Assembly (NCBI RefSeq): GCF_051903065.1
Contig: NZ_CP178439.1
From: Escherichia coli
GTDB taxonomy: Bacteria; Pseudomonadota; Gammaproteobacteria; Enterobacterales; Enterobacteriaceae
Reading direction: 5' to 3' (one strand)
DNA length: 64,000 nucleotides
A program made the position numbers and the translations under genes. Positions 7,402 through 57,702 of the stretch are shown here, piece after piece. Position 1 is the first letter of the stretch. Every line of letters starts with the position of its first letter. The notes beneath the pieces were generated by a model. It was given only the letters and a program-made list of their open reading frames with translations. It did no database searches and had not been told where the DNA came from.

Positions 7402-7408
7402 GGTTTAA

Positions 7409-7891: not shown

Positions 7892-7904
7892 AGGGCACCC
7901 AATA

Positions 7905-12829: not shown

Positions 12830-15800
12830 CTTTTAACTTATTTAACCCCCTTTATCGCCAATCTGTGATTTTCTAATGTTAGCCTACAGTTCTAGGGCCC
12901 TTGCTCCCATGATGCGAATCCTTCCACCTAATAAAGATTAACGCCTCATTCCTGTATGCCGGTCTTACGACGCCAGTGCTCGGGCTATTTTCGGTCCTAA
13001 CAAGACCTGGCGAGAGATTTAATCAGGGCGTGGTGTGACTGAGCAGCAGCTGGGGCACTGTTATCCGCTTGCAGATTTAACCCCCTTAATCGCCAAACTG
13101 GGGTACTGTCCTGATGCTGGCCTTCAGTTCTGGGCTGGGTGGCTATCACTTCCTCCCATAATGCGAAATGTAACTGCTGATACAGATTAACGTCATATTC
13201 CTGCGTGCCGGTCTGCCAACACCAGTGCACGGGCTTTTTTCGGTCATCACATTACCGGGCAGGAGATTTTATCAGGGCGTGGTGTGACTGAGCAGAAGCT
13301 GGGGCACTGTCAGCAGCTTGCAGATTTAACCCCCTTAATCGCCACACTGGGATTCTGGTCTGATATTGACCTTCCGTTCTGGGCGGGGTTCGGTTTGCTA
13401 ACACTTACTCCCATGATACGAAATGTGCCTGCTGATACAGATTAAAATCACATTACTGCATACCGGTCTGCCGACACCGGTGCATGGGCGATTTCCGACG
13501 ATCTCAAGAACATATGGGAGATTATATCAGGGAGAGTAGTATGCCTGAGCAGCATCTGAAGGCACTGTCAGCCGCTGTCAGATTTAACCCCCTTAATCGC
13601 CAAACTGGTGTTCTGTCCTCATGCAGGCCTTCAGTTCTGAGCTGGGTTGCTATCACTTGCTCCCATAATGCGAAATGTACCTGCTGATACAAATTAACGT
13701 CGTATTCCTGTATGCCGGTCTGCCGACACCAGTGCTCGGGCTATTTTCGGTCCTAACAAGACCTGGCGAGAGATTTAATCAGGGCGTGGTGTGACTGAGC
13801 AGCAGCTGGGGCACTGTTATCCGCTTGCAGATTTAACCCCCTTAATCGCCAAACTGGGGTACTGTCCTGATGCTGGCCTTCAGTTCTGGGCTGGGTGGCT
13901 ATCACTTCCTCCCATAATGCGAAATGTAACTGCTGATACAGATTAACGTCATATTCCTGCGTGCCGGTCTGCCAACACCAGTGCACGGGCTTTTTTCGGT
14001 CATCACATTACCGGGCAGGAGATTTTATCAGGGCGTGGTGTGACTGAGCAGAAGCTGGGGCACTGTCAGCAGCTTGCAGATTTAACCCCCTTAATCGCCA
14101 CACTGGGATTCTGGTCTGATATTGACCTTCCGTTCTGGGCGGGGTTCGGTTTGCTAACACTTACTCCCATGATACGAAATGTGCCTGCTGATACAGATTA
14201 AAATCACATTACTGCATACCGGTCTGCCGACACCGGTGCATGGGCGATTTCCGACGATCTCAAGAACATATGGGAGATTATATCAGGGAGAGTAGTATGC
14301 CTGAGCAGCATCTGAAGGCACTGTCAGCCGCTGTCAGATTTAACCCCCTTAATCGCCAAACTGGTGTTCTGTCCTCATGCAGGCCTTCAGTTCTGAGCTG
14401 GGTTGCTATCACTTGCTCCCATAATGCGAAATGTACCTGCTGATACAAATTAACGTCGTATTCCTGTATGCCGGTCTGCCGACACCAGTGCTCGGGCTAT
14501 TTTCGGTCCTAACAAGACCTGGCGAGAGATTTAATCAGGGCGTGGTGTGACTGAGCAGCAGCTGGGGCACTGTTATCCGCTTGCAGATTTAACCCCCTTA
14601 ATCGCCACACTGGGGTTCAGTCCTGATAGTGTCCTTCCGTCCTGGGCTCGGTTGCTAACACTTGCTCCCATTGCGCCTGCTGATACAGATTAAAGTCACA
14701 TTACTGCATACCGATCTGCCGACTCCGGTGCATGGCTTTTTCCGATAATCACAAGGACGGACGGGTGATTTTATCTTTGCATAGTATGTCTGAGCAGCAT
14801 CAGAAGGCTCTGTCAGCCACTGGCAGATTTAACCCCCTTAATCTCCAAACTGGGATCAGTCCTGATAGTGTCCTTCCGTCCTGGGCAGGGTTGCTAACAC
14901 TTGCTCCCATGATACGAAATGCGCCAGCTGATACAGATTAACGTCTCATTACTCCATGCCGGTCTGCCGAAACTGGTGCATAGCTTTTTTCGATATTCGC
15001 ATGAACAGACGCTTGATTTTTTCAGGTTGTAATATACCTGAGCAGCATCTGAAGGCACTTTCAGTCTCTGTCAGATTTAACCCCCTTAATCGCCAATCTG
15101 GGATTTTCTGATGTTAACCTACAGTTCAAGGCCCTTGCTCCCATGATGCGAACCTTGCAACCTGATAAAGATTTAAGCCTCATTCCTGTATGCCGGTCTT
15201 ACGACTCTAGTGCACGGGGACTATTTTCGGTCATAATAAGACCTGGCGGGAGATTTAATCAGGCGTGGTGTGACTGAGCAGAAGCTGGGGCACTGTCAGC
15301 CGCTGGCAGATTAAAACCCTTTATTCGCCATCTCAAGACGTCATTATGGGTAGTCCTTTTAACTTTCTAAGGACCATTAAGCTTAAACTCCGTTTAGAGA
15401 ATGACGTAAGATTTAGGCTAAGCAGGTTAAGTGATCCCCGCTCCCGGGTTGAACACTTTATTCATCGTACGAGCGAAAGATTGTCCTTCGGGAAATATTT
15501 CTTATACACCGCTCGGGCACTTACAGCCACTGGCGGATTTAACCCCCTTAATCGCCAAACTGGGGTACTGTCCTGATGCTGGCCTTCAGTTCTGGGCTGG
15601 GTGGCTATCACTTGCTCCCCTAATGCGAAATGTGTCTGTTGATACAGATTAACGTCATTTTCCTGCGTGCCGGTCTGCCGACACCAGTGCACGGCCTTTT
15701 TTCGGTCATTACATTACCGGGCAGGAGATTTTATCAGGGCGTGGTGTTACTGAGCAGGAGCTGGGGCACTATCAGCAGCTTGCATATTTAACTCCCTTAA

Positions 15801-16410
15801 TCGCCAAACTGGTGTTCTGTCCTCATGCTGGCCTTCAGTTCTGGGCTGGGTTGCTATCTCTTGCTCCCATAATGCGAAATGTATCTGCTGATACAGATTA
15901 ACGTCATATTCCTGTATGCCGGTCTGCCGACACCAGTGCTTGGGCTATTTTCGGTCATAACAAGACCTGGCGAGAGATTTACTCAGGGCGTGGTGTGACT
16001 GAGCAGCAGCTGGGGCACTGTCATCCGCTTGCAAATTTAACCCCCTTAATCGCCAAACTTGGGTTTTGTCCTGATGCTGGCCTTCCGTTCTGGGCGGGGT
16101 TGCTATCACTTGCTCCCATCATGCGAAAAGTGCCTGCTGATACAGATTAACGTCATATTCCTTCATGCCGGTCTGCCGACACAAATGCACGGGCTTTTTT
16201 CGGTCCTTACAATACCGGGCAGGAGATTTAATCAGGGCGTGGTGTGACTGAGCAGCAGCTAGGACACTGTCAGCCGCTGGCAGATTTAACCCCCTTAATC
16301 GCCACACTGGGGTTGCCTCCTGAAGTTGGGTTTCAGTTCTGGGCTAGGTTGCTAACTCTGCTCCCATAATTCGTAGTGGGCCTACTCAAGAGATTAACAC
16401 CTCATATCTT
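12830..16410. repeat. Tandem array of about 15 units of about 249 bp, including a near-identical 756-bp (three-unit) duplication
   Basis: Anchor CAGATTTAACCCCCTTAATCGCCA recurs at about 12836, 13072, 13321, 13579, 13828, 14077, 14335, 14584, 14824, 15072, 15306, 15534, 15782, 16032 and 16281; track ORF pairs 12997..13230 / 13753..13986 and 13484..13687 / 14240..14443 are identical. Confidence 0.9.
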
Positions 16411-16777: not shown

Positions 16778-18031
16778 ATGAATTTACTTGAAAAGATCGC
16801 CCTCGTTGGTCAGCGCATGAAAAGCGAGCAGATTTCTCTTAAGGAATCTCTGATGGCTTCATCAAGAGTATCTGTTTCTGATGATAGTGTTGATGGTGTT
16901 GATAGACTGATCTACAACCACTGTTTAAATAAAAAAAATCTCTCTGATTTTTTTGGGAAGTCACGAGTAACGTTCAATAAAATACTTTCGGACTTAGAAG
17001 AAAAAGAACTTGTTGGTGCACCTATTTATCAAAACAAAAATCATCTTTACACCCGCTGGGATGTTCAAAAAATAATGGATGCCCTGGGTTATCCCAAGTA
17101 CCGCGATCATTACTTTAGCAGAGCTATTGTTACTCAGAATCATAAAGGCGGTACAGGGAAAAGCACTACATCTGTAGCTTTAGCAGTAGCAGCTGCTTTA
17201 GATCTACAACTGAATGCACGTGTATTAATGATCGAATGGGACCCACAAGGTTCGATTGGAAGCAGCATGATTCAAAGTGTCTCAGAAGATGATGTCTTCC
17301 TTACAGCAATTGATGCAATCCTTGGAATTTATGAAGAAAATTCTGAGTATAAAAAATATTTAGATTCAGGATTCTCTGAAGAAGAAATCATCACTAATAT
17401 GCCTTTTTCAACGCATCTGCCAAACTTGGACGTGATAACGGCATTTCCGACAGATGCTCGTTTTAAAGATAAATACTGGCAATGTTCTAGAGAAGAACGA
17501 ACGTCTTTGTTACTACGTTTCAAGGAAGTTATCTTACCGGTACTGAAGCAGAACTATGATTTGATTATTATAGACACTCCACCTGAAGATTCACCTTTGA
17601 TCTGGGCTGCTGACGAAGCGGCCGATGGGATTCTTGTCGCAGTGTCACCACGTGAATATGATTACGCCTCTACTACAGACTTCATGCTTACAATAAGTGA
17701 AAGGTTTAAACAATCACCAAGTAAGGGCGATAATTTAAAATGGTTCAAAGTTCTTGCTGTCAATGTTGATGACAAAAGTCCATATGAAAGAATAGTTTTG
17801 GATAAATTAATCAGAACTGTTCAGGACCTTTTGATGTCCGCTAACATAAAAAATTCTGAAGCATTTAAGGCAGCTGCTTCCAAAGGGCGTACAGTGCTTG
17901 ATATCAAAAAATCAGAGGAACTTTGTTCCGCAAAGCAACTTGATGTCGCAGAAGAATCTGTATTACAGGTATATCAACAATTTATAAATGAAATAAAAAG
18001 TTTTTCAGCTAAGCAAGGAGTTAACGCATGA
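16778..18031 (+). CDS. parA: Partition ATPase ParA (type Ia, Walker type with N-terminal extension)
   Basis: 417 aa; deviant Walker A KGGTGKSTT; long N-terminal region typical of SopA/P1 ParA-type proteins. Confidence 0.85.
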   Translation: MNLLEKIALVGQRMKSEQISLKESLMASSRVSVSDDSVDGVDRLIYNHCLNKKNLSDFFGKSRVTFNKILSDLEEKELVGAPIYQNKNHLYTRWDVQKIMDALGYPKYRDHYFSRAIVTQNHKGGTGKSTTSVALAVAAALDLQLNARVLMIEWDPQGSIGSSMIQSVSEDDVFLTAIDAILGIYEENSEYKKYLDSGFSEEEIITNMPFSTHLPNLDVITAFPTDARFKDKYWQCSREERTSLLLRFKEVILPVLKQNYDLIIIDTPPEDSPLIWAADEAADGILVAVSPREYDYASTTDFMLTISERFKQSPSKGDNLKWFKVLAVNVDDKSPYERIVLDKLIRTVQDLLMSANIKNSEAFKAAASKGRTVLDIKKSEELCSAKQLDVAEESVLQVYQQFINEIKSFSAKQGVNA

Positions 18032-19032
18032 GCGATGAGCAACATATCGGGAATGATAAATCTCGATATTTAAACGCACCAAAGCGGACAGAAGTCGGTC
18101 ACCGTTCAGGTCTTGCGGGTTTGAAAACAGCACCTCGCATAAAAAAGTTATTCACTCTTCATAAGGGCCGAAGACTTGAAGCGGAACATGTGATTGTTCC
18201 AGCCCAGAGAGTGGAGAAGGAGACCTTAGTCCATCCAGCAAACCCACGAAATCAAGAAGCCCTTACAGATTATTCTGTTAGAGATATTCTTAAGCAGATT
18301 GAAGAAAGAGGGGTCGATACCGAAGGGATCGCTGTAAAAAGAGATGGGGTTTATTTATTAATAGAAGGAAGTCGCAGACGTTTCTGCTGTATAAAGGCAG
18401 AAAAGGATCTCCCCCTGTGGGTACTACCGGATGAACTAACCGAAGATGATATAAATTCAATTATATCCGCAGCACAAACATCTCGAAAATTTTCATATAG
18501 AGAAGTTGGGTTTCAATTTATCAAGAAAATGGAAGAAAAGGGATTTTCTACTAATGAAGAACTCGCAGCATATCTTGGGATTAGTCATGTATCGGTAGCC
18601 AAAAGAATCCAGGCGGCCCGTATTGACGAAACATTGATCTCTTTATTCCCGGATTATGAAGGAATACCGAACTCCTATTATAGTCGCTTGTCTCGTTTAC
18701 AGAAATATGTGCAAAAAAATCTATTTCCTTTAGATGAAGTAATAGATAATGTTAAAGAGGAAACAAAAGATTTAGACATTGGAGATCTCCAAGTTGCCCA
18801 AAAAGTTGTAATGGAGAAAATCACACAAGCTGTGGAAAGTGTTTGTGAAAAATCTTATTCCACAAAATGGGAAACAAGTGATCTTATTACTTTTGATAAC
18901 AAAGATAAGTATGCAAGAATCAGTAAAAACAATACTGGAAGAAAAATTCGCATTGAATTCAATAGGATAAGTGCGGGTTTTATTAAGGAGCTAGAGGAGT
19001 TCATAAAAGAAAAATTAAAAGTATCAGAATAA
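18028..19032 (+). CDS. parB: Partition protein ParB
   Basis: 334 aa, translationally coupled to parA (4-bp overlap); ParB-like GSRRRF box. Confidence 0.7.
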   Translation: MSDEQHIGNDKSRYLNAPKRTEVGHRSGLAGLKTAPRIKKLFTLHKGRRLEAEHVIVPAQRVEKETLVHPANPRNQEALTDYSVRDILKQIEERGVDTEGIAVKRDGVYLLIEGSRRRFCCIKAEKDLPLWVLPDELTEDDINSIISAAQTSRKFSYREVGFQFIKKMEEKGFSTNEELAAYLGISHVSVAKRIQAARIDETLISLFPDYEGIPNSYYSRLSRLQKYVQKNLFPLDEVIDNVKEETKDLDIGDLQVAQKVVMEKITQAVESVCEKSYSTKWETSDLITFDNKDKYARISKNNTGRKIRIEFNRISAGFIKELEEFIKEKLKVSE

Positions 19033-21774: not shown

Positions 21775-22795
21775 AAATTCCTCTACGTATGTTTACATCG
21801 ATGATACGGTATTTCGAGCTATGATTTTTTTACATAAAGGCGTCATTTTGGATTCTAAGCCTAAGGACCTTTGTTACTTACTGGTAAAGGCTCCAGTCCT
21901 GGCTCTCAAACAGTTCATACTTAGGATGCAAAGTAACTTTCTGATTATAATTGGCTCCTTTATAAACATGTTTACTTCATGAATACAGGATATTTAACGG
22001 TAATGTATTTAAAATGGAAGGATGCTGAAATAACATAGAGTTACGTATTTTTTTAATAGTGTTGATGTTGATAATAGGTCACCATTAATGTATAAAGTTA
22101 ATATCTAATATGGTCCTATTAATAAAAGAGAGTTTTTATGGCTGAACTATTAAAATCTGAAAGTCCTGTTTCACAATCATTGCAGGATATCACTGAAGCT
22201 TTAAAAATCGTTGTCGATGATGGAAGTAAAGCTGCAAAACTGGTTTGTCTTAATGAAAGAAACGAATTAGTTCCCTTGCTCACACAAAATAGTTTTGTTC
22301 CAGATTTCCGTGTTCGCCATGAGGGTCTCAATCCTTTTAACTATCTTATTGATGGGCTGGAAAGGTTTTCGCATCACAGCGAATCTAGTAACTCACTGGA
22401 ATCGACTGATGTATCTCACCAATACGATGAAATTAGCCGGTTAAATGTTCACCATGCACTTCATGCTTCTGGTTTAGTTCCTCAGGATGTTCACCTCTTT
22501 GTTACTTTACCTCTTAGCCAGTTCTATACTGCTTTAGGGGAAACGAATATTGAAAATATTCAGAGAAAAAAAGATAACCTGATGAAACCAGTTGAGCGTT
22601 ATCTTGACGGTAAACGCTATTCTTTCAACGTTTTGTCTGTGACTGTTTTCCCTGAATCTTTACCAGCTGTGACCCGGGCAGATGAAATTGAGGATATTGC
22701 TTCATTTGAATCAAGTTTGGTAATTGATCTTGGTGGTACTACTCTTGATGTTGCAAGTATTACTGGGCAATTAGAACAGATTTCGAAAGTAAAAG

Positions 22796-23992
<1,197 letters not shown>

Positions 23993-24198: not shown

Positions 24199-24651
24199 AT
24201 GCTATCTCGCAACTCACTAATACATGGTTTACGCCGAGACCAGTTAATCGGAGTTCTGACTATTTCAGAGTTTCCGGTAGTTATGGTAGAAAGCCACTTC
24301 ATTCAGTCTGAGGTTATGGGAATAAAACCCGTAATTTTTAATATTGATGAGCTTCTTGTTTCTATATCCCCAATTTCCTCTCTTAAGTTCGATTGGGAGT
24401 GGGCCCCAGTTGATACAATACTCATTGAAGTTATCATTCCACCTGTAGAGTCAGACCTTGTAAGTGCAGAAAATGACTTCCTCCGTGATTCTGGTATCGG
24501 CCATATCCAGTGCGAGCCTGGCGGAGCATCAATACGACGTACAGTTACCTTCGTTGGTGGAATAACCGCTGATAACTTACTGTATCAGTTGAGGCTTATG
24601 TGCGTAAGTGCGTTAAAACTTTTAGGAGAGGAACTGGGGGATGAAGTCTAA
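24199..24651 (+). CDS. Hypothetical protein
   Basis: ORF of about 150 aa after IS5 (track start 24172); start choice uncertain. Confidence 0.4.
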   Translation: MLSRNSLIHGLRRDQLIGVLTISEFPVVMVESHFIQSEVMGIKPVIFNIDELLVSISPISSLKFDWEWAPVDTILIEVIIPPVESDLVSAENDFLRDSGIGHIQCEPGGASIRRTVTFVGGITADNLLYQLRLMCVSALKLLGEELGDEV

Positions 24652-25066
24652 GATTAGATATGTTTTATCTGGTTTTGTTGTGATATGTGCATTTGCTGGA
24701 GTTTATAAAATCCTAAACAATGTTCCGGTTAAACCTGACCTTTTGGACTTCACTGGAAACACATTTAAAAAGACATCACTCTTCCTGCCATGTGATAAAA
24801 GCTCGCCTTCTTTAAACATTAAAATTGCTGATAACGAGAAAATCGTGATCAACGGCATCGCTTCAAAAGTAACTTTTGTTGAAAAGGCTGACCCCGTCAA
24901 AAGCCCTGGTTTTTGTGATGATCTTGATCTAAACAATTCTCGCCTTGTACATACGGCATCTTACAGCATGGTGATTTCTGAAACCAAAACAGGATATACA
25001 CTCTCAAATTTCAAGCATCTTGCCGATGATGAATCATTAGGTGGTATGTGGTTTTATCAAAAGTGA
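24641..25066 (+). CDS. Small exported protein, unknown function
   Basis: 141 aa with signal peptide/anchor YVLSGFVVICAFAGV; overlaps neighbours. Confidence 0.5.
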   Translation: MKSKIRYVLSGFVVICAFAGVYKILNNVPVKPDLLDFTGNTFKKTSLFLPCDKSSPSLNIKIADNEKIVINGIASKVTFVEKADPVKSPGFCDDLDLNNSRLVHTASYSMVISETKTGYTLSNFKHLADDESLGGMWFYQK

Positions 25067-25074: not shown

Positions 25075-25629
25075 ATGGCAACTTCAGACTTCTCTCTTAA
25101 AAACCATAATGTAAAAGCTTTTGGTCAGGATGCAGCACTTGTCATTGAGATGAACAATGAAGATGTTAGCTCATCAAAACCTTCACCTTTTTCAAATGAG
25201 ATTGATAATTATTATCTTACATTGCACGCCGCTCCGAGGAACGCCAAAAAAGATTATGACTGGGGCTCAAACCGTTCTGTACTTCTAAAATTGTCGACGA
25301 ATGAAGTTATGCAGATGGCATCTGTATTTCTTAGAATCATGCATACTTTAAAAATTGATAAGAGGAAAACCTCACATCATGGCCACGTCGTATACAAAAA
25401 TATAAGCGTTACCCCAAACGAGAGGGGCGGTTTGTTGTTATCAGCAGGGATAGTTCCAGTCGATAAAGACGGCTTAAAACCCTTCATGCACATGGTCCCC
25501 GTCTCACAAATGGACTGCGTTAAAATTGGCCTCTACATACTTGGATATCTTGCTCAAAAAACGCCTTGGGTAAGCTCCGAGTCTATAATTACCGCGCTTC
25601 GCTTATCTGAAGCCAAGAATTCAAAATAG
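25075..25629 (+). CDS. Hypothetical protein
   Basis: ORF of about 184 aa (track start 25048); no recognisable motif. Confidence 0.45.
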   Translation: MATSDFSLKNHNVKAFGQDAALVIEMNNEDVSSSKPSPFSNEIDNYYLTLHAAPRNAKKDYDWGSNRSVLLKLSTNEVMQMASVFLRIMHTLKIDKRKTSHHGHVVYKNISVTPNERGGLLLSAGIVPVDKDGLKPFMHMVPVSQMDCVKIGLYILGYLAQKTPWVSSESIITALRLSEAKNSK

Positions 25630-25748: not shown

Positions 25749-28700
25749 ATGAGAAAATCAGGTTTAGGTTTAGCCCTGTTGTTTTCTTTAATTGCTCCGA
25801 TTAAAGCGGTCTATGCCGAAGCGATTATGATTTCAGGAAAGCTACAGGCTGATTTGCCAGCCGTATCCTTTGACCCGGGGCCGGGCGACTTTGTTGCATA
25901 CGTTAATTCTAACACTATCACTGCCTCAGGTGCAGGCACAGCCTGTAATGTAACGGTTGATGATCGAGCGACTTCCTCTGTTGATAACCTCGTTTGTTTT
26001 TTTGAGTGGTTACCCAATACCTTGGGATTTACTTCTAACGGTTTCACTCTTTCAGGCGTTCCCAACACCACCGGTGATTTAAAACTACCTTACAAGATTT
26101 CTTACTTCTCTGGTTCTGAACGGAAAAAAGTTGAAATAGTAAAAGGTGAATATTCAATCAAAAGTGTGGCACCGGTAAAACCTACTATCACCGGTCTTAA
26201 ATCATCCCTGAACGGATTAGTCTATGACGGCTTTTCTTTCAAATCGTATTTAAAGGATGAAGCGATCAAAGATATCGCTGTTTCTGTTGAGCCCCGCAAT
26301 TATATTCAATACATCTCAATAGGTTCAGGCTCCGCCTGTGAAGTTCCTATTGGCGGAACTTCCTGTACCATTGAAGTTGGAAGCATTAAGGCCAGTGATA
26401 CAGATGAACTTTTGGGTTCACGTGATATCACAATTACAGCAAACTCTAAGAATAATTATTTCGCACCTCCTGAATCCAAAAAGCTTGTTGTTAACTGGGA
26501 TTATCGGCCTCCTGTAGTAGACCATACACTTTGGAATTTTACCGATGAGGCTAAAACAATCAAAGTAGGTGGCCAGGACATCTATACCGGAGCCAAAACC
26601 GTTGCTGTGGCCGTTAAGGTACCCCAGCAAGAAACAGAAGGTGAATGGTGGCTCCCAACAGCTATGTCGCTCACTATGACTCCGGATGGCGTGTTTAAAC
26701 CGACGACTAAAGTGACTTTAGATGATGGCACTGAGATTGATTTCAAACAGTCCTGGGCAACCCCTTTACGTAGAACTTTACAGCCGGTAAGTGGACCTCA
26801 AAAAGTCGGTGATGAGTACCTCTATATCTTCGACTTAACGGATCTTATAAACGGGTCCTACGCAGCGACTTTTACAGTAGAAAATACGAGCAAAAACTCT
26901 TCTACGTACACTGAGCCTGAAAGCAAACTGATGCTGTCTGATAACCCAACGCTTATGGTTCTCAAAGATGGGCAGGTATTAACTAAACGAGCACCCGTAT
27001 ACTTCCTGAACGAGATTATCGTTGCAGCTTTCCAGGGGCAGGCTGGGGTTGCTGACATAAAATCAGTAACAATAGACAACAAAGTAGTTTCGTTAACACC
27101 TACAAATTATAGAGGTATTTACTACCTGCCGGTTGGAGACGATTTAGCAGTTAATTCGGATCACGAGATTACTGTGGTGGCTGAAAACCTTTATGGAAAA
27201 AACGTTAATTTCAGTACCGTTTTCACTTATCAACCTACTGGATTCACTCTCAAGAATCTGGAAAAAAACGTAACTCTTTACTCGCGTGTACGTCAGTATA
27301 CGGACCTGCTTAGTCAAACAGCTGGTGATAAATGCACTCTGTTTACCACAGAGGAAAATGCGAATGCTTACCTCGCCTGGTATGGGGAAAAATCAGATGT
27401 TACAGCATGCTACCCTCAGTGGAACAATGTCCCTGATGGGTTGGAGTTCTATTTTAAAGGACGTACCCCGGGTCTAACTGGATTCTTTAATAAAACAGGT
27501 GAGAATCTGCTCGACTATCAAGTCTATATGATTAACGGGAAGGGCTCTAAAGCGGTATCCGCAAGGAATCGCCGTACTCTGACCACACAATTACCATACA
27601 ACCCGATCATCTCTTACAAAAAGAATAAAGTCATAGCTGGCATCAATCCGAACACTGCTCTGGCTTATACGACCGGGGGGGAGGCCGCTCGAATATTAGC
27701 GAAGGTGGTACCAGCTGACGTTACGATGATCGTCTCTCAAAACGGCTCTGAGGCTGTCAAAACGTCATTTAAAAATCGTTCCTCAAACAACGATGCAACG
27801 ACCTTTGTACAAAGGGTTAAGGTTGCTGCTGCACCATTGTGGACAAAGAACGTCTTTGACATAGCTGTAGAATACTCAAAGGATCCAGAATTAAGAACTA
27901 CAGACACACTCAACGTATATACGGTGCCTGATTTCAATATTCGAGCATCGATGGAAGTGGATGACAGAAAAACAGCCACATCTCTTGAAGTGCCCTTAAA
28001 GGTAACAGTGGGGCGTTATAACAACTCCACACGTAAAAGTGCATTTGACCGTAAAACAATGGGAGAATGGGACGTCACGATATACTCGCAAAAAAGTGTA
28101 TACGGCAAAGATCCAGAAACAGGCCGTTATAAAACTACATACGAAAGAACTGCGCTGACTGAAGCATTGCCGGTCAATGATGCGGGCATTGTCGAAACCA
28201 AGATTAAAATTGAAAATATGGATCTGGGTAATATGCGTCTGGTTGGTGTGGCTAAGGTCAGATCGCCATTCTCTGATTTTGAAATGAAACGTGAGACCAG
28301 TGCTGTAGGCATTCGAATCTATAAAGGTGAGGAACTGGAGGGTAACCTGTCGAAAAGCCTTATTATCGGAAGGATCCCACTTAGTACTCTGGTAAGCTTC
28401 AAATCTGCCAGTACTGCTAACTCTGACGCACTTGCCCCCACCGAATGGCAGCAGTCCTCTGATAATGGTCAAACCTGGAATATGCTTTCCGACATGACCG
28501 GAAAGAGAAGTGTAAGTATCAAAAAGACAGAAGTAGGAAAGTGGCTTTATAGGGCAAAAATGACCAATAAATTCACATCTAAGGTTTCCTACACAGATGC
28601 CTTAACGGTAGTTACCTACAAGCAGCCTAAGCTCAGTATAGATGTGACAGACATTCTTCAGGGCTCAGATGTACCTGTAACCCTGCTTGATAACGATGAG

Positions 28701-30053
28701 CCTATACCAGCAGGCACCGCTGAGGTTCTCTGGTCAGAGGATAAAGTCAACTGGGTGCAGGGAGATACAACTTACACTGTGGCTTCAGCTGATACCCTAC
28801 CGTCTACGATTTATGCCCGGATGCGTTACCTTGATTCCGATGAACTGGCAGAGGAGTCTTCATGGAAGGAAACGTCTGCTCGGTTGGCAGCCGCAAAACC
28901 CAAGCGCCTTTCTGTCTCGGTAACGGGGGTTTCTAAGGTAGAGGTTGGTCAAAAAGTTACTTTGGAAGGTAAGTTCACGAACCCTAACAGTAAGTACCAG
29001 AATGGTAATAACGTAGTTGAAGAATGGAAAACACCGGATGGCCAGACATTTAAAGGCTCTACACTGTCTGTTACCCTTACTGAGCAAATGTTGGATAAAC
29101 AGGGATATGCTGCTTTTGAATACAGTGCATGGTTAGCGGACAATAAGGAGAATACGGTTTCTACCCGTAGAGTTTCTGTCAAATCGTGGGTTTATAAATT
29201 CCCCGAAATGAAAATAAGCTCCAAACTTAAATACGACATGGCACCGACCACCCTACGCGTTGCGTTGAGCGGTATTAAGGATGGAGACTATCCTGGTGTT
29301 ACTTATTCCCGAGAATGGATTTACGACAAAGAGAATCTGGTAATCACTAAAGATGAAGGTGACACCAAAGAATTTACAATTGAAAATCCTGGCAAATATA
29401 CATTGATGGTTGTTTTCAAAGATAACCGCAACAATGAACAGCGTATCGAAAATACCTTTGTTGTCGATGAACAAACGCCAATGAACGTTGAGATGACACC
29501 CAAGTTCTCTAACAAATATATGAGAGCTCCACTCGATGTAACCTTAAGGTCAAACATCAAGCTATCTCATTCGGCGGACTCGATAGATACGGTCACATAC
29601 AAGGTGAACGGTGAGGTAATACCCAGCGGCAAAAATTATTGGGCTCAACTGATTTCGGGTTTAAAAGAAAAGAAATACGAGATCACAATTGATGTTGTTA
29701 GTAAACTTGGACAGAGAGGTTCAGCATCTGTTGAGTTTGATGTCGTTAAAAACGCAGTGCCTAATTGTACATTGAGCTACACGGAAACCAACCTAAGCTG
29801 GAGCTTTACCAATAAATGTGATGATACTGATGGAAAAATGGTTAGATATGAATGGTTCATCAACGGCGAATTAAGGAACGTTTTCGGTAGTACGGCTACA
29901 CTTTCTAAAAACCTTAACCGTGGTAAGCAGGACATAAAAGTAATTGCTTATGATGATAGTGGAGACTTTGCAACGCAGCACGTGACAGTTTTCGGACCGG
30001 CTGAAGAGGCAAGTAAGTCTGAATACACTGTATCAATACCAAGCAGTGAGTAA
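25749..30053 (+). CDS. Very large secreted protein, probably repeated Ig-like beta domains; resembles the large Big-domain proteins reported on IncHI plasmids
   Basis: 1434 aa; signal peptide MRKSGLGLALLFSLIAPIKAVYA; Thr/Ser/Val-rich beta-strand-like composition; sits between the small ORFs and the traF-like gene. Confidence 0.6.
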   Translation: MRKSGLGLALLFSLIAPIKAVYAEAIMISGKLQADLPAVSFDPGPGDFVAYVNSNTITASGAGTACNVTVDDRATSSVDNLVCFFEWLPNTLGFTSNGFTLSGVPNTTGDLKLPYKISYFSGSERKKVEIVKGEYSIKSVAPVKPTITGLKSSLNGLVYDGFSFKSYLKDEAIKDIAVSVEPRNYIQYISIGSGSACEVPIGGTSCTIEVGSIKASDTDELLGSRDITITANSKNNYFAPPESKKLVVNWDYRPPVVDHTLWNFTDEAKTIKVGGQDIYTGAKTVAVAVKVPQQETEGEWWLPTAMSLTMTPDGVFKPTTKVTLDDGTEIDFKQSWATPLRRTLQPVSGPQKVGDEYLYIFDLTDLINGSYAATFTVENTSKNSSTYTEPESKLMLSDNPTLMVLKDGQVLTKRAPVYFLNEIIVAAFQGQAGVADIKSVTIDNKVVSLTPTNYRGIYYLPVGDDLAVNSDHEITVVAENLYGKNVNFSTVFTYQPTGFTLKNLEKNVTLYSRVRQYTDLLSQTAGDKCTLFTTEENANAYLAWYGEKSDVTACYPQWNNVPDGLEFYFKGRTPGLTGFFNKTGENLLDYQVYMINGKGSKAVSARNRRTLTTQLPYNPIISYKKNKVIAGINPNTALAYTTGGEAARILAKVVPADVTMIVSQNGSEAVKTSFKNRSSNNDATTFVQRVKVAAAPLWTKNVFDIAVEYSKDPELRTTDTLNVYTVPDFNIRASMEVDDRKTATSLEVPLKVTVGRYNNSTRKSAFDRKTMGEWDVTIYSQKSVYGKDPETGRYKTTYERTALTEALPVNDAGIVETKIKIENMDLGNMRLVGVAKVRSPFSDFEMKRETSAVGIRIYKGEELEGNLSKSLIIGRIPLSTLVSFKSASTANSDALAPTEWQQSSDNGQTWNMLSDMTGKRSVSIKKTEVGKWLYRAKMTNKFTSKVSYTDALTVVTYKQPKLSIDVTDILQGSDVPVTLLDNDEPIPAGTAEVLWSEDKVNWVQGDTTYTVASADTLPSTIYARMRYLDSDELAEESSWKETSARLAAAKPKRLSVSVTGVSKVEVGQKVTLEGKFTNPNSKYQNGNNVVEEWKTPDGQTFKGSTLSVTLTEQMLDKQGYAAFEYSAWLADNKENTVSTRRVSVKSWVYKFPEMKISSKLKYDMAPTTLRVALSGIKDGDYPGVTYSREWIYDKENLVITKDEGDTKEFTIENPGKYTLMVVFKDNRNNEQRIENTFVVDEQTPMNVEMTPKFSNKYMRAPLDVTLRSNIKLSHSADSIDTVTYKVNGEVIPSGKNYWAQLISGLKEKKYEITIDVVSKLGQRGSASVEFDVVKNAVPNCTLSYTETNLSWSFTNKCDDTDGKMVRYEWFINGELRNVFGSTATLSKNLNRGKQDIKVIAYDDSGDFATQHVTVFGPAEEASKSEYTVSIPSSE

Positions 30054-30069
30054 TAAATTTTTAAATATA

Positions 30070-30100
30070 AAGCCGGGACATTTTGTCCCGGCTTTTTTAT
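30070..30100 (+). terminator. Rho-independent terminator after the large secreted-protein gene
   Basis: AGCCGGGACAttttTGTCCCGGCT followed by TTTTTT. Confidence 0.7.
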
Positions 30101-30330
30101 GCCCAACAATTGGACCTTTGAAAAATTAATACCGGAAAGTAACTTTGCTACAAAGGTATCTTTCATGGCCGCTAACAAGGCTGCGTCTACATGCTGAGAA
30201 ATTAACATCCTTATAGGTGAATATTAGGTTAGTTTGCAGACTTCCGAGCGTTGAAAAACATGGATAATAGTTACTTGGATAGAGGTGTATCTACTTAGTA
30301 AAAATATTCTTCAGTGCCAGTGAGAAAAAT

Positions 30331-30843
30331 ATGAGCGACTACATACCTAAAAAGAGAGGGCTGCTTATACTGGATTGGTATGTCCCCATTAATATTTTAT
30401 TGCTGATTCTCGTTATGTGTGTCTTTTTCACCCGTTATACATTTGGATACGGTTTATTGAATGGGTGCCTGCCTGCTGATTTTTATATGATTGATCATTC
30501 GGATAAAACTATTAAAACTGGTGAACTCATAGCTTTCAACATGCCGAAATCGGTTCGTTTTATCCCAGAAAATGAACGAGTCATAAAAATTGTTGCCGGT
30601 GTGGGCGGTGACAAACTCAAAGTAACAATGGATGGGGTTTATAACGGGGACAAATTTTTTGAAGCTAATGCACGTCGTATTTCAAAGAAATACAGTATTC
30701 CGTCCATTTTGATTGAAAAAGAATTGATAATTCCTGAAGGCGAAGTTTTCCTAATTGGGCAAACCGATCACTCATGGGATTCCCGTTTTTGGGGAACAGT
30801 AAAGCTGAATTCAGTAATTGGGAAAACATATGCGATCTTTTAA
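30331..30843 (+). CDS. trhP: TraF-like signal-peptidase-family protein
   Basis: 170 aa; N-terminal membrane anchor plus peptidase-S26-like core (VIKIVAGVGGDKL ... GEVFLIGQTDHSWDSRFWG). Confidence 0.6.
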   Translation: MSDYIPKKRGLLILDWYVPINILLLILVMCVFFTRYTFGYGLLNGCLPADFYMIDHSDKTIKTGELIAFNMPKSVRFIPENERVIKIVAGVGGDKLKVTMDGVYNGDKFFEANARRISKKYSIPSILIEKELIIPEGEVFLIGQTDHSWDSRFWGTVKLNSVIGKTYAIF

Positions 30844-32341
30844 TGTAAATAAAAAATATTTACCAATACTTCCTGGACTTGCGTTATGTGCAGTTTTAAG
30901 TAATACAAATGCAAGCACTGAGTATCAACATGATGCTGACCTAATCGCTCAGCAAGCAAAAGGGCTTGGCGCTCAGGCTAAAGGTGCACAGCAGCCAGAT
31001 GGGGCTCTTAGCCTTGATGCTACGCTAAATTCACCAGATGTGCAGAAGTACATTGCGCAAGCTGAAGCACTCAAAAAAAACCAGGACCTGAGCAGGCAAA
31101 CAAACCGTGGTTACGTGCCCGGTATGAATGCGGATAGTGTTCAAGCAGTTATAGACCATACCCAGGCTATAAGGGCCCAAAGTAATAACTCTGATGCTGT
31201 CAACGATATAATTAGAAGACGTGATGAAATTCAGGAAAACGCCAGCCTTAATGAAGCGGCTCTGAAAGCTGTGGAAAATAAGCCGGAAGTCATGCGAGGA
31301 CAATCTAAAAATATCGAAAAATTGTTTGGTTCCTCGGGCATCACAGCTGCTGACTTCGAAAGAAAAATGGATAGCACACGTGAAGAAGCACTATCAACTG
31401 AAAATGGTATAACGATCTTTGCTTCATTTAGCTTACCGGATTATGTACTGGAAGACCTTTTACGTACGGCCTCAGAGCATAAAGCTCGTGTAGTTTTCAA
31501 TGGTCTAAAGAAAGGAACTACTCGGCTACCAGAGACACAGGCAGCAATAAACCAAATGATTGTCAAAGGAAAATTTGAATCTCCTTTGATTACAATTGAT
31601 CCTGATAGCTTCAGTCAGTATCAAGTAACTCAAGTACCGACAATTATTTCTCGGGAGCAAGCTCGTTTTGCAAAAATGGTAGGGTCCTTCAACGTTGAGT
31701 TTTTTCAGCGAGAACTTGCTAAAAAACCCGATCAGGACATTTTTCCTGTTGCTGGTACGATTTATCCCGTTGAAGAAAAGAGCATCATTAAAGAACTGGA
31801 AGAACGCGCACAAAAATATGACTGGGAAGGTGCAAAAAAAAGGGCCGTTGCGGACACCTGGAAAAATCAATGGATGGTCGATCTCCCTCCTGCCCAGGAA
31901 CACAAAGAATTTTTAATTGACCCTACAGTGAGGGTCACTCAGGACGTAAAAGATAAGCAGGGCCGTGTAATAGCTTCCGCCGGTGAGTTGATTAATCCAC
32001 TTTCGAGATTTCCTCAAAACCTGACGATGATAATTTTCGATCCACTCAATCCGGGCCAGCTGGTATGGGCTGAGCAGCAGTATCGACAACGTCTGGGTAG
32101 TGGAAAAGTAATGCCAATGTTTACCCGTATCCAAAAAGATAATGGATGGGATCACCTAAATGATTTACGTGAAAAATTTAACGGTAAGGTGTTTAAAGTA
32201 AACGAACAGATTATCTCACGCTTTCAGATTAAAAATACACCTGCGCTTATAACTACTGACCAAGATAAATTCCGGATCACCCTGTTTAGCGAGGCAGAAG
32301 TCCGTGGAATCGGAGCCCCAAATCTTTCAGAGGAAAAATAA
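30818..32341 (+). CDS. trhW: TraW-like pilus assembly protein (extended form)
   Basis: 507 aa with a signal peptide; assignment rests mainly on operon position (traF-like, traW-like, traU, traN order). Confidence 0.45.
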   Translation: MGKHMRSFNVNKKYLPILPGLALCAVLSNTNASTEYQHDADLIAQQAKGLGAQAKGAQQPDGALSLDATLNSPDVQKYIAQAEALKKNQDLSRQTNRGYVPGMNADSVQAVIDHTQAIRAQSNNSDAVNDIIRRRDEIQENASLNEAALKAVENKPEVMRGQSKNIEKLFGSSGITAADFERKMDSTREEALSTENGITIFASFSLPDYVLEDLLRTASEHKARVVFNGLKKGTTRLPETQAAINQMIVKGKFESPLITIDPDSFSQYQVTQVPTIISREQARFAKMVGSFNVEFFQRELAKKPDQDIFPVAGTIYPVEEKSIIKELEERAQKYDWEGAKKRAVADTWKNQWMVDLPPAQEHKEFLIDPTVRVTQDVKDKQGRVIASAGELINPLSRFPQNLTMIIFDPLNPGQLVWAEQQYRQRLGSGKVMPMFTRIQKDNGWDHLNDLREKFNGKVFKVNEQIISRFQIKNTPALITTDQDKFRITLFSEAEVRGIGAPNLSEEK

Positions 32342-32479: not shown

Positions 32480-33541
32480 ATGATGGTGAAAAAATTCAAA
32501 AAGTTACTTTTAGAGTTCATTGTAGCAGTTATGCTTTCGCTTTCTATACCTGGTATGGCTATGGCAGCAGATGCTGGAGTCCCTGGGGCTATGTGTCAGT
32601 CAGCTGGAGTGTGGCAGGGCTTGATTAAGAATATCTGTTGGAGCTGCATTTTTCCCATGAGGATAATGGGCATAGGGGCTGCTCCAGAAGGCGCTGCACC
32701 TTCACGTCCGGGTTGCTACTGCACAGATCAGAACGGCGTACCGGAAATAGGTTGGCAATTGAGCTTCTTTCAGCCGGTGAAGATTGTAGAAGTTGTAAAG
32801 AGCCCCTGGTGCAGCCCCTTTCTTGAAGGCACGATGCTTCAAAAATCGCAGTTTGATATTGGTAAAAGCAACACTAATCAGCCAATGACAGCAACTGAAG
32901 CCGGATTTTACGATGTTCATCTTTGGGAGTTCCCAATCATGACAATGCTCAAATTACTGATTATTGGCGAGTGCACTGCTGAACCCTATATAGATGCCAG
33001 CCTGACCTATATAAGCGAAGTGGACCCTATGTGGGAAAGTGATCTGCTTACACTCGTCCTGAATCCCGAGGCAGTAGTTTTTGCAAACCCAATTGCCTCA
33101 ATGGTGTGCGCTGCTGACTGTGTAGCAGTAACAGCAGGAAAGGATAATCTCGCTGCATACTTTTGTGCCGGATGCGATGGCAACCTTTACCCATTAACCG
33201 GCCACATTTACGCAAATGATGACGCTGTAAGGACGAGTTCACTGATTACCCAGCGTCTTCTGACAAAACTACATCGCCAAGGCATGCTGATGCGAACGAT
33301 GGGAGCAGACGCAATGTGTGAGAAAACGTGGGAATACTTTACACCACGTTCCCAGTATCGGCTTTCAATGCTTTTCCCTACTCCTGAGGCGAAGGGACCG
33401 GATTGCTGTCATCGTCTTGGTGATTCGGTACACGACTGGTCAACCCTTAAAGGTGGGCGCAAAAAAATAGGCAACGATAATTATGTCTATATGTTGTGGC
33501 GTTACAATGACTGTTGTGTTCGCTACGTTCCGGGCGTTTGA
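32480..33541 (+). CDS. trhU: TraU-like pilus assembly protein
   Basis: Signal peptide MMVKKFKKLLLEFIVAVMLSLSIPGMAMA; Cys-rich periplasmic protein of about 350 aa as in F TraU (track start 32381). Confidence 0.6.
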   Translation: MMVKKFKKLLLEFIVAVMLSLSIPGMAMAADAGVPGAMCQSAGVWQGLIKNICWSCIFPMRIMGIGAAPEGAAPSRPGCYCTDQNGVPEIGWQLSFFQPVKIVEVVKSPWCSPFLEGTMLQKSQFDIGKSNTNQPMTATEAGFYDVHLWEFPIMTMLKLLIIGECTAEPYIDASLTYISEVDPMWESDLLTLVLNPEAVVFANPIASMVCAADCVAVTAGKDNLAAYFCAGCDGNLYPLTGHIYANDDAVRTSSLITQRLLTKLHRQGMLMRTMGADAMCEKTWEYFTPRSQYRLSMLFPTPEAKGPDCCHRLGDSVHDWSTLKGGRKKIGNDNYVYMLWRYNDCCVRYVPGV

Positions 33542-33559: not shown

Positions 33560-36500
33560 GTGAAACTTAGAAAAACAATCACCTCAGCGATTATTGCATC
33601 AATGGTTGCCAATACTATGAGTTGGGCTTTTTATGTCACACTCATAAACATGGTAATGACACCACGTGTTTACGCTGCTGACGCTATATTTGACCAGCTC
33701 GAAAATAATTTTAACCTTGCAAATCCTAACGCAAATCGCAATGCAACCACCAGTGCTCAGGACATTGTGGAGAAATACAAGAACGCGGATTCAGGCGAGA
33801 ATGTCAGTGGGAAGATCACCGAGAAATACGTGGGTAAAGCCGAATCCGCTAATCTTAATCTCGGGAAGTATGGGGCAGGGAACTCTAATGAAAGTGTCAT
33901 GAAAAATGCCGCATCCGATGGAAAGTCTATTGGTAGCGCCGTACAACTGCCGAGTATGTCTGGAGGGACAATCAATTCAAACTACACCAAGGAAGGGGCA
34001 AAGCTGCTCTCTCGTGATGCTAATGGCAACATTGGTATAAGCAGTAATCCCAATACTACTCCTGGAACCAAAACAAATACGGGAGAGATTTTCAGCTCAG
34101 AGCAAAAGCACAGCGATATAAAGTTCAACGCCGCAGATCGTTATGGGGATGAGGATGGCTTTGTTAACGATATAAAGAATCGGAAAAGCCAGTTATTTGA
34201 TGCTCAAAGTTATGATGGCGTTGCCTACCGCACCCTCGTAAATGCTAACAAGGACAACCCGGCATCGTCTGTAAAGCCTAACGATCCCATGTTTACTGCG
34301 GGGAGAAATGAGATAACCAATGCTGTTGCTGGTACTGGAAACTGGCTTCAGAACTGTAATGTTGAGACCTCCAAAAAAACAGTAACCACACACTATCCTG
34401 ATTACAAAGAGTTCTACTGTAACTCGCCTAAGCAAGATAACTTCAGCAGCTGCACGATAACTCGTGACTTCTCTGTTCCTGTATACATTTCAGGCGGAAA
34501 CGGAGACATGTCGATGTGCGGCGATAATTGTGTGCGTATATGGTTTGGTCGCCGTGATGACAACTACTGGAGTGACGGGGTATTTAATAACGAACTGACA
34601 TTAAAATTCCATCCGGATGCAAAATTGGCCTCAGCAAAGATTGTTAACGCGGAGTGGGATGACCACATGCGGGTAACACTTGATGGCACGCAGATTTTTG
34701 CTCACATAGATGGTGCATATCGAGAAAGTGACTATCCGGCTCCAAAGGGATCTTGGGAGTTAAAAAAATCGTGGAAACTCGACAAAGTATACGATGTAAC
34801 TGAAAAGGTCAGAAAATCAGTTTATGAAGAACCTGATCGTGAAGTGACAATGGCATCCAGAGTCTGGGTTGGTGGGGGAGGTGAAGGGTACTTTGAGGTT
34901 GAGCTGACGTTTGAAAATATGAAGCTCGAAGATAAGCACGTCCAGGAACCAGCTGGTTGTTACGATGCTGTACAAACACCAAATACATTCTGCCGTTTCG
35001 ATCGGTTTAAAGATATGGATGTTGGCACGAAGCGGCTTCCGGAAAGCGTGCTTTCTATGGCAAAGCCGCTGTATGAAGGCGATAAAGGCTTTCTTACCTG
35101 GAAGACTAACCTTGAAGGCTATTTTTGTGATCCATTGGCTAAAGACAAGATTTGCTCTTATGACGCTAGTGGGAAAATTATGAAAGACGCTAATGGAAAG
35201 GACCTCTGTTACAACTACGAAGAAATTAAGAGTATGCCTGATGCATGTAGTTCTTATAAAAATGATGCAGCATGTGTACTCGATAAACAAACATGTGCAG
35301 AGGGTTGGTTCGATGAGGGCACTAACAGCTGCTACATGTATGAACAGAAATACACCTGTGACAGAGGTAAGGATGTAGTTCGTGAGGTTGAATCTTCTAC
35401 AAATGCCTGTGTTGGCATGATCCCATGTTCTGGAGGAACATGCGAAACTGGGCCAAAGGAAGAGAACAACGATTTTGGAAAAGTTGCGGCTTATTCAAAC
35501 ATGGTTCAGTACATGCAGGGCGAAGCCAAATGCGAAGACCCTAACGATGCCAATTCCTGTTCTGTCTTTGAAGGAAAACCTGAATGGTGTGGTCGTTCAG
35601 TAGGCTTTGTAAATGGCCTGGCAAAGACGGACTGCTGCGAAGCACCGCAGGGAACCGCAGGAGCACTTGAAGGTATCATGCTTGCCGGATCTATGATCAG
35701 AAACACTAACTGGACCAGAGTTAATGCTCAGCTAATAAAATGGACCGGCGGTGATACAGGTACATGGGCTTCTATGTCCAATGCGGTCGGTGAGTGGACT
35801 GCATCAGCTGGTAAAACAGTAGGGCAAATGTGGAACAATGTCACGAGCTCCTTAACGAGCGTATATGAAAACGTCGCTGGTAATCTAAGCAGGGCAGTTG
35901 GGTCTTCCGCAACTTCTGGAGGGGCAGGAGGTGCTGGCCAGTTGGCACAGGAAACAATGTCCAGCTTCGGTATAGGTCAGCTTAAGCAGATGGCAATGAA
36001 GAAAGCCTACGAATTGCTACCAGATACAGTTCGAGACTTTGTCTTTAAGAACGTTGCTACTACCGGAGGAGAGGTTGTCTTCTCGGCTGCGGTTCAAAAC
36101 TTTATGCTTGCATTAAACGTGATCGGTTGGATTTATACAGCCTATCAGGTCACTAAAATGCTTTTAGAAATGTTGGTAGCATGCGACCAGAAAGAGATGG
36201 AAGCTTCTATTCATAAGAATCAAAAATCCTGTTTTACATTAGATACGGAACGATGCGTCAAATATCTGAATGTTGGTTTCACAAAGAAATGCGTTAAAAA
36301 AGCAACAGACATGTGCTGTTATAATTCCATGTTGTCACGCGTTATTATGCAACAAGCTTATCCGCAATTAGGAATAGACCCTGTCGCCTCTAATTGCGTG
36401 GGGCTATCAATAAAGCAAATACAGCAACTGGATTTCGATAAAATTGATCTGACGGAGTGGATTAATGATGCAGTTCAGGTAGGAGAAGTTCCTGATCAAT

Positions 36501-36748
36501 ATTCAAAATTCTCCGAAGAATCAATTGTGGAAAACTTACCATTCCAGAATGAGAACTATCAACTTCCATCAGAACGTACCAAGGAAGCAATGGGCGGTGA
36601 AGAAAATATGATAAAGGCCAGACAAGAAAATGCTCAGGCTATAAAAGAGGAAAATGTAGATTGTAGCTATTTACCTCGACCGGCCATATGTGAGGTAGGT
36701 TCAACTACGCTGGATCCGGTTACGGGCAAGCAGTTGCCGAAATATTGA
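33560..36748 (+). CDS. trhN: TraN-like Cys-rich outer-membrane mating-pair-stabilisation protein
   Basis: 1062 aa; signal peptide; many Cys concentrated centrally and C-terminally, as in F TraN; GTG start after AAGGAG. Confidence 0.6.
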   Translation: MKLRKTITSAIIASMVANTMSWAFYVTLINMVMTPRVYAADAIFDQLENNFNLANPNANRNATTSAQDIVEKYKNADSGENVSGKITEKYVGKAESANLNLGKYGAGNSNESVMKNAASDGKSIGSAVQLPSMSGGTINSNYTKEGAKLLSRDANGNIGISSNPNTTPGTKTNTGEIFSSEQKHSDIKFNAADRYGDEDGFVNDIKNRKSQLFDAQSYDGVAYRTLVNANKDNPASSVKPNDPMFTAGRNEITNAVAGTGNWLQNCNVETSKKTVTTHYPDYKEFYCNSPKQDNFSSCTITRDFSVPVYISGGNGDMSMCGDNCVRIWFGRRDDNYWSDGVFNNELTLKFHPDAKLASAKIVNAEWDDHMRVTLDGTQIFAHIDGAYRESDYPAPKGSWELKKSWKLDKVYDVTEKVRKSVYEEPDREVTMASRVWVGGGGEGYFEVELTFENMKLEDKHVQEPAGCYDAVQTPNTFCRFDRFKDMDVGTKRLPESVLSMAKPLYEGDKGFLTWKTNLEGYFCDPLAKDKICSYDASGKIMKDANGKDLCYNYEEIKSMPDACSSYKNDAACVLDKQTCAEGWFDEGTNSCYMYEQKYTCDRGKDVVREVESSTNACVGMIPCSGGTCETGPKEENNDFGKVAAYSNMVQYMQGEAKCEDPNDANSCSVFEGKPEWCGRSVGFVNGLAKTDCCEAPQGTAGALEGIMLAGSMIRNTNWTRVNAQLIKWTGGDTGTWASMSNAVGEWTASAGKTVGQMWNNVTSSLTSVYENVAGNLSRAVGSSATSGGAGGAGQLAQETMSSFGIGQLKQMAMKKAYELLPDTVRDFVFKNVATTGGEVVFSAAVQNFMLALNVIGWIYTAYQVTKMLLEMLVACDQKEMEASIHKNQKSCFTLDTERCVKYLNVGFTKKCVKKATDMCCYNSMLSRVIMQQAYPQLGIDPVASNCVGLSIKQIQQLDFDKIDLTEWINDAVQVGEVPDQYSKFSEESIVENLPFQNENYQLPSERTKEAMGGEENMIKARQENAQAIKEENVDCSYLPRPAICEVGSTTLDPVTGKQLPKY

Positions 36749-48694: not shown

Positions 48695-48964
48695 CAACGA
48701 TAACTCCCCCGCTTTTTGCGGGGGGGGTTATCTTATCAATATTATATTTTAAAATTGTATTGATAAGATAACCGCTTTCCTTCGTGATAATTACCTGCCT
48801 TTAAGGTCTTTTCACGGCTGAGATGCTTGCTCAGTTAAATAAATGTGCGGTACTACTGGCTATGGTCGGTTGTATGACATGGTTATTCCATAAACTATTA
48901 AAACCCATAACGGGAGTATTACCGTTATGGTGATGCTCGTCGTTTTACATCGGAGAGCATTTTA

Positions 48965-57686: not shown

Positions 57687-57702
57687 AATTAGGCGGGGCA
57701 GA

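Follow-up and report, generated by a model that had tools for sequence, protein, structure and literature searches.

RSP of an IncHI2 plasmid, an Ig-like protein of the transfer region, and a short palindrome dispersed over the IncHI backbone

The open reading frame (ORF) found at positions 25749..30053, on the + strand, of a 64,000-nucleotide stretch of Escherichia coli DNA (contig NZ_CP178439.1; hereafter, the window) is, judging from its sequence, the rsp gene of an IncHI2 plasmid, i.e., the orthologue of ORF R0009 of the IncHI1 plasmid R27, and it represents a standard and intact allele that is already known. It is very probable that its product, RSP, is an immunoglobulin-like (Ig-like) protein that is exported by means of the Sec pathway and the pilus machinery, and that binds pili and flagella and acts in conjugation. 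Two copies of a short palindrome, AAAGT-N-ACTTT, which recurs throughout the window and appears from its conservation to be a selected signal of the IncHI plasmids, are located within this gene.

The rsp gene and the architecture of its product

The gene starts with an ATG, comprises 1434 codons and ends with a TAA stop codon, and no other ORF of similar size overlaps it. Its DNA is 100% identical to the gene annotated in RefSeq as "rsp: IncHI-type conjugal transfer protein RSP" in IncHI2 plasmids, and the encoded protein is identical to WP_065311105.1. When rsp was compared by megablast with 72,556 plasmids, 1126 records matched, 974 of them with at least 99% identity; the plasmids that carry the 100% identical gene are typed as IncHI2A, MOBH and MPF_F, and positions 10001-50000 of the window align in register and with 100% identity with the E. 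coli plasmid pXJW9B277-HI2-N. RSP from R27 is 84% identical to the window protein (93% positives, 0 gaps, 1424 residues); both share the signal-peptide pattern and are of nearly equal length (1432 residues in R27 versus 1434 here), and the 16% of the residues that differ are densest in the regions 100-200 and 1000-1100 and in the final 35 residues. Previously, an R0009 allele was reported for each of the 34 IncHI1 and 102 IncHI2 plasmids known at that time (PMC6764697). Full-length orthology with the R27 protein, the position in the AN operon, an IncHI backbone and a mostly beta, Ig-like fold are all found for RSP. An original prediction, made from the letters of the DNA, had delimited this ORF of 1434 codons with exactly these coordinates, had placed it in a transfer region, and had tentatively likened its product to the large Big-domain proteins of IncHI plasmids. 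These proposals are sustained by the identities given above, by the neighbouring genes (htdA, two small transfer genes, trhF, a gene of the TrbC family, trhU and trhN), and by the homologues present in the transfer regions of IncHI1, IncHI2 and IncHI1B-type plasmids.

The product has a molecular mass of 158.6 kDa and an isoelectric point of 5.8, and its most common residues are Thr (9.8%), Val (8.9%) and Ser (8.4%). This agrees with the beta-rich and Thr/Ser-rich composition that the original prediction had pointed out, as do two AlphaFold2 models of RSP (predicted local distance difference test, pLDDT, of 86 and 82) with 54% strand and 3% helix. In these models, the mature protein (25818..30050, + strand) is predicted to be a succession of approximately 13 beta-sandwich domains of the Ig/PKD/FnIII-like type, whose approximate limits, set by strand grouping only, are residues 35-141, 145-252, 255-395, 398-496, 497-615, 618-727, 731-858, 865-958, 961-1046, 1054-1147, 1154-1241, 1245-1334 and 1338-1416. 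The fold matches of the model are exclusively of the Ig, FnIII, PKD and macroglobulin (MG) types, and the C-terminal sandwiches match PKD/FnIII domains. According to the models, RSP is thus Ig-like from end to end, as opposed to having one Big domain followed by a SiiE-like tail. The tandem Ig-like domains that had been anticipated for this protein are therefore borne out by structure prediction as an all-beta string of Ig-like domains, with the qualification that they resemble one another in fold only and show no detectable sequence repetition. No long direct repeats, nor any internal repeats beyond matches of chance size, were detected in the DNA of rsp; the comparison of one half of the protein with the other using hhalign recovered only the 20-residue overlap of the two constructs. 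A sequence search of the PDB with RSP gave nothing significant (best E value of 0.25). In Pfam, a sub-threshold match to Big_3_3 (PF13750; E 5.6e-4, 20 bits) was found for residues 356-497 (26814..27239, + strand), in the same region where residues 331-470 of the R27 protein were termed a Big 3 domain in 2019 (PMC6764697, Fig 1). Given that the homologues P0003, P0014, P0015 and P0018 carry precomputed matches to PF13750, this domain is probably real, yet diverged in the window allele.

Export and role of RSP, and its relatives

The N-terminus of RSP shows the features of a Sec-type signal peptide, predicted to comprise residues 1-23 (MRKSGLGLALLFSLIAPIKAVYA; 25749..25817, + strand) and to be cleaved before E24. 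According to the hydrophobicity profile, a basic n-region precedes a hydrophobic core, and then comes a cleavage site of the A-x-A type that is followed by the residues EA; this core is the sole strongly hydrophobic stretch of the protein. In a set of 17 homologues, the most divergent of which is 27% identical, A23 never changes and E24, I26, M27 and S29 hardly do; in the AlphaFold2 model residues 1-31 are disordered. It was previously shown that RSP from R27 is located in the secretome and the periplasm (Huttener et al. 2019, PMC6764697), that its export is abolished in a trhC mutant and regained upon complementation (PMC6764697), and that TrhH and the pilin TrhA are also required (Huttener et al. 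2022, PMC8730810). The view that this ORF encodes an exported protein, already present in the original prediction, is consistent with both the conserved leader of the window allele and the export shown for the R27 protein. Since there is a Sec leader, a periplasmic pool, and a dependence on pilus-assembly proteins and pilin, a two-step export would fit best, i.e., translocation by Sec to the periplasm, and then passage to the surface together with the pilus as it grows, or attached to it. The 2019 paper does not contain the word "signal" and does not mention the conserved leader; it considered an autotransporter (type V) route (PMC6764697). No autotransporter family was found for RSP in Pfam at E values up to 1, and instead of a C-terminal barrel, the last 380 residues are modelled as four separate sandwiches of 80-95 residues.

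Work on R27 also revealed that conjugation in liquid is impaired in an rsp mutant, that RSP binds flagella and lowers motility, and that it is required for conjugation even in non-flagellated cells (PMC6764697). It was later reported that RSP binds pilus-like filaments and that it has a partner, RSP2, in IncHI1 but not in IncHI2 plasmids (PMC8730810). By analogy with R27, from which all these experiments come, the window protein is expected to be exported in a TrhC/TrhH/TrhA-dependent manner, to bind flagella and pili, and to be needed for efficient conjugation. In the mechanism that we propose, RSP would be an extracellular protein of about 13 Ig-like beta-sandwich domains, most likely carried across the inner membrane to the periplasm by its cleavable signal peptide, that would reach the surface or the medium only when the F-type/H-type pilus assembly is working. 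Outside the cell it would bind the conjugative pilus and the flagella, lowering motility and promoting mating-pair formation, and it would raise the frequency of transfer in liquid at low, permissive temperature, as was shown in R27 and is presumed for the window allele. The gene would be transcribed as the fourth of the AN operon, probably also from an internal promoter, and its transcript would end at a strong terminator-like hairpin.

Several points weigh against this explanation. The functional experiments were all carried out with R27 and not with the 84% identical IncHI2 allele, and given that IncHI2 plasmids lack rsp2, the interplay between RSP and RSP2 cannot apply here. The match to Big_3_3, with 20 bits, is below the gathering threshold of 27 bits, and in spite of its RefSeq name, RSP did not match any model when scanned against NCBIfam. 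Around rsp, a consensus scan detected 10 promoter-like sites versus 16.5 in shuffled sequences. As for the export route, it was proposed that RSP leaves the cell by type IV secretion via a periplasmic intermediate (PMC6764697), and the Sec step is a reading of the sequence alone.

A different view of the role of RSP is that it is an integral component of the conjugative pilus, either pilus-associated or an adhesin of the tip that stabilizes mating pairs in the manner of TraN or PilV-type proteins, and that its effects on flagella and motility are secondary. We consider this rather unlikely, although it is less an alternative to the best explanation than a refinement of it. The gene is fixed 5' of a block encoding an S26 peptidase, TrbC, TraU and TraN in IncHI1, IncHI2 and IncHI1B-type plasmids and in distant marine or metagenomic elements, and the homologue from IncC plasmids is located between the pilin gene traA and dsbC-traC. 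A structural role would also be in line with the requirement of RSP for conjugation in cells without flagella, with the need of pilin and pilus-assembly proteins for its export, and with the decoration of pilus-like filaments by RSP (PMC8730810). On the other hand, RSP is abundant in cell-free supernatants and is seen on flagella (PMC6764697).

It is far less probable that RSP is a general fibrillar adhesin or biofilm protein of the SiiE, BapA or Lap kind that came to be in the transfer region by accident. Those adhesins are exported by type I secretion, whereas the export of RSP, as seen in R27, depends on pilus genes of the type IV secretion system. Substrates of type I secretion systems have no Sec leader and carry a C-terminal secretion signal; RSP, in contrast, has a conserved N-terminal Sec leader. 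Near-identical tandem repeats, as would be expected for such an adhesin, were not found in rsp or RSP at the DNA or protein level, and unlike these adhesins RSP acts in conjugation and its domains are not sequence repeats. The neighbours of rsp are type IV secretion and partition genes and not type I secretion genes, its place inside the tra operons is kept across very distant elements, and its deletion lowers the conjugation of R27. This conserved synteny, together with the genetics of R27, largely refutes the possibility of a general adhesin.

Homologues of RSP were recovered at different distances. A tblastn search against plasmids yielded four tiers: IncHI2 plasmids with at least 99% identity (1098 records); IncHI1 plasmids with approximately 84% identity (282 records at 80-90%); Klebsiella IncHI1B-type plasmids with approximately 51% identity and full synteny; and an Ig-like protein of IncC plasmids with approximately 24.5% identity over RSP residues 487-1405 (E 1e-64). 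A word-seeded search gave 18 clusters of homologues, the most distant of which is a 26% identical protein from a Vibrio plasmid. This search understated the family, since 281 proteins were recovered at E <= 0.001 when a profile of the N-terminal half of RSP was compared with 1.84 billion representatives. Approximately 65 of the 281 are full-length RSP-like proteins of 1380-1450 residues, and the RSP-like proteins include those of Photobacterium, Neiella and Alteromonas. In three relatives with a readable context (L004, L008 and L007) the rsp homologue is located 5' of the S26 peptidase-TrbC-TraU-TraN block, and the metagenomic relatives with a distant or approximately 50% identical RSP keep the same gene order.

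The IncC Ig-like protein (WP_085281193.1) has 1843 residues and, as RSP, is encoded in a MOBH/MPF_F transfer region; it differs in having an extra N-terminal part with DUF4165 and Big_3_2, and in the location of its gene, between traA and dsbC-traC instead of 5' of the S26 peptidase gene. When a related protein of 1828 residues was compared with RSP residues 142-1434 using hhalign, the probability was 100% (E 9.5e-62). RSP lacks the first ~380 residues of the IncC-type protein and sits at a different locus, and the traits of the IncC/SXT-type subfamily (approximately 1830-1845 residues, DUF4165/Big_3_2, proximity to traA/traL in a MOBH element) were not found in it. These alignments show that RSP is homologous with the IncC Ig-like protein along most of the sequence, and that the two belong to distinct subfamilies. 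Previously, RSP and the IncA/C protein were grouped by domain annotation only, and the large Big-domain protein of the IncA/C plasmid pKAZ3 (ALG87338.1) was reported to promote conjugation at 25 C (PMC8730810). Further Ig-like genes (DUF4165/Big_3_2/Big_3_3) occur near the rsp homologue in the Vibrio plasmid CP090982.1 (L003), at 6355-8739. Likewise, R27 has three genes for Ig-like domain-containing proteins between Tra2 and Tra1 (48925-51084, 55629-56225 and 57498-59882), one of which is presumably rsp2.

A dispersed palindrome of the IncHI backbone

The motif AAAGTNACTTT is present 19 times in the window versus 0.20 copies expected, a number that none of 100 shuffled sequences reached. The copies start at positions 987, 1772, 4825, 7910, 19856, 21930, 24866, 25060, 26709, 28953, 30136, 32500, 39023, 39702, 46148, 49893, 54530, 58723 and 62168. 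The two copies in rsp had already been indicated in the original prediction as being in frame, and this is correct: AAAGTGACTTT, at 26709..26719, lies 960 nt from the ATG and encodes K321-V-T-L324, and AAAGTTACTTT, at 28953..28963, lies 3204 nt from the ATG and encodes K1069-V-T-L1072. The next copy, AAAGTAACTTT (30136..30146), is located in the intergenic region between rsp and trhF (trhP), a gap that has an active internal promoter in R27 (PMC7366339); it aligns with an R27 copy at 11569 within flanks that are otherwise divergent. A near-copy 5' of rsp, AAAGTGAGTTT (at ~25709), was dropped given that it is not conserved in R27. Many of the copies are found at gene boundaries or in promoter gaps.

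One explanation for the copies in rsp is that they are a by-product of encoding K-V-T-L, a common peptide in beta strands, and are of no relevance as DNA sequence. It is true that both are in frame 0 and encode this peptide, that V322, T323 and L324 are invariant in the family, and that 7 of the 11 ORF-internal copies of the window are in frame 0 and encode KVT followed by L or F. Nevertheless, about 8 of the 19 lie in intergenic DNA, and those in coding regions occur in all three frames. The spacer is always 1 nt, as no copy in the window has one of 0 or 2-5 nt; apart from a tendency to have A before and T after the motif, the flanking positions are uninformative. The window and R27 align with 74.7% DNA identity, at which 6.5% of the background 11-mers keep the ten specified bases; yet all seven alignable sites keep the ten bases in R27, with changes in the central base (binomial P = 5e-9). 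Both rsp palindromes are at the same offsets in R27, and in the 51% identical orthologue of the Klebsiella IncHI1B-type plasmids their offsets are 957 and 3198. In the relative L004, the first is kept at offset 960 and the second is lost, the peptide at that place differing too. At the first site (26709) four lineages all have the codons AAA GTN ACT TTA, and differ in the wobble base N and in the neighbouring codons. Around the distant RSP homologues of IncC plasmids, of the Vibrio plasmid and of one marine relative, no copies of the palindrome were found. The coding by-product is already refuted for the palindrome as a class, and for the two copies in rsp it is scarcely credible. The conservation of the motif instead indicates that it is a signal under selection at the level of the DNA, and one that is particular to the IncHI clade.

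R27 contains 46 copies in 180 kb, none of which is in its Tn10 or tcu island; in the IncHI2 plasmid there are none in the IS26/aph island, and outside the window the copies thin out. Tentatively, and with somewhat less than even confidence, we propose that AAAGT-N-ACTTT is an undescribed cis-acting signal of the IncHI-clade backbone, under purifying selection in IncHI1, IncHI2 and IncHI1B-type plasmids and in a more distant relative, which most likely would bind a putative dimeric plasmid-encoded protein, either a global regulator or an organizer of the nucleoid or partition type, and that the intragenic copies of rsp would be functional binding sites overlapping with the coding sequence. In the searchable literature the motif appeared only in unrelated primers and eukaryotic sequences, older subscription papers on IncHI plasmids being outside this search. 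The possibility that it is the operator of the TrhR/TrhY-HtdA system was discarded as unsupported: taking the regulation of the F, AN and R operons of R27 by the HtdA circuit from PMC7366339, the promoter gaps of the HtdA-regulated F and AN operons have no copy, and the HtdA-insensitive R-operon promoter has one at -86.

One putative palindrome-binding protein is a 160-residue transcriptional regulator, whose gene (7409-7891) is flanked by trhB and htdT in the Tra2 pilus operon; the palindrome at 7910 is 19 nt past its stop codon. Other backbone DNA-binding proteins that may be candidates are the ParB-family protein encoded at 18028-19032, HtdA, and TrhR/TrhY. In IncP-1 plasmids, the KorB OB sites are dispersed operator sites of a plasmid global regulator. 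Similar to them, AAAGT-N-ACTTT is a short palindrome that is scattered over the backbone, in promoter gaps and in genes, with approximately one copy every 3-4 kb; in contrast, its sequence is unrelated, and its sites do not track the HtdA-regulated promoters.

Neighbourhood of rsp and significance of these observations

According to the RefSeq annotation of identical DNA, rsp is preceded by htdA (24199-24651), an htdF-like gene (24641-25066) and an htdK-like gene (25075-25629), and the annotated genes that follow it are trhF (30331-30843; S26 peptidase family, trhP in the R27 literature), trhW (30830-32341; TrbC family), trhU (32486-33541) and trhN (33560-36748), all of them on the + strand. 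The order htdA-htdF-htdK-rsp-trhF/P-trhW-trhU-trhN, followed by trhI, is common to the window and R27, and the R27-type order is also found around the 51% identical IncHI1B-type orthologue. In R27, it was reported that R0009 is the fourth gene of the AN operon and that there are active internal promoters 5' of R0009 and of trhP (Gibert et al. 2020, PMC7366339). A hairpin that resembles an intrinsic terminator (30069..30100, + strand) begins 16 nt past the stop codon of rsp, and has a stem of 12 bp, a loop of 3 nt and a U-run. Its folding energy is -22.3 kcal/mol (z = -4.8), and none of 200 shuffled sequences was equally stable; an equivalent hairpin is present 3' of rsp in R27, and this structure is consistent with the multiple transcripts reported for the AN operon of that plasmid. 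A scan for the terminator consensus around rsp gave 7 sites versus 5.0 in shuffled sequences, i.e., the level of chance, and missed this hairpin.

Further 5' of rsp, in the region 22138-23923, an ISKpn26 element (IS5-like; 22943-23923) is inserted between htdA and a shortened parM, which encodes 234 residues versus 344 in R27, and the gene that R27 has between parM and htdA has no aligned counterpart in the window. This comparison suggests that the partition module of the actin type (ParM) is disrupted in this IncHI2 lineage. In addition, a 249-bp unit is present as a tandem array at 12900-15330 (9.8 copies) and 15511-16370 (3.5 copies), with matches of 76-86%. The array fills the 4.4-kb gap between trhC/TraC and parA, where no ORF of at least 120 residues is found on either strand, and its G+C content is ~49% versus ~42% nearby. 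This is possibly a centromere or an incompatibility repeat region for the adjacent ParA/ParB module.

The window carries the standard intact IncHI2 allele of rsp, which is nothing new by itself, and the leader, the architecture and the homology with the IncC protein are incremental additions to what is known of RSP. Among these, the conserved Sec leader argues for a two-step export over direct type IV secretion, and the homology between RSP and the IncC protein, together with the marine relatives, suggests that these proteins may be an ancient accessory of the mating systems of the MOBH type. IncHI2 plasmids rank among the major vehicles of resistance genes, including mcr-1. The surface-exposed RSP was employed as a vaccine and nanobody target in a 2024 study, and has been proposed as such a target to block the spread of these plasmids (bioRxiv 10.1101/2023.12.12.571265). 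Of all the elements described, only the palindrome may be new, and identifying the protein that binds it could provide a handle on the plasmid-wide control of the IncHI plasmids.

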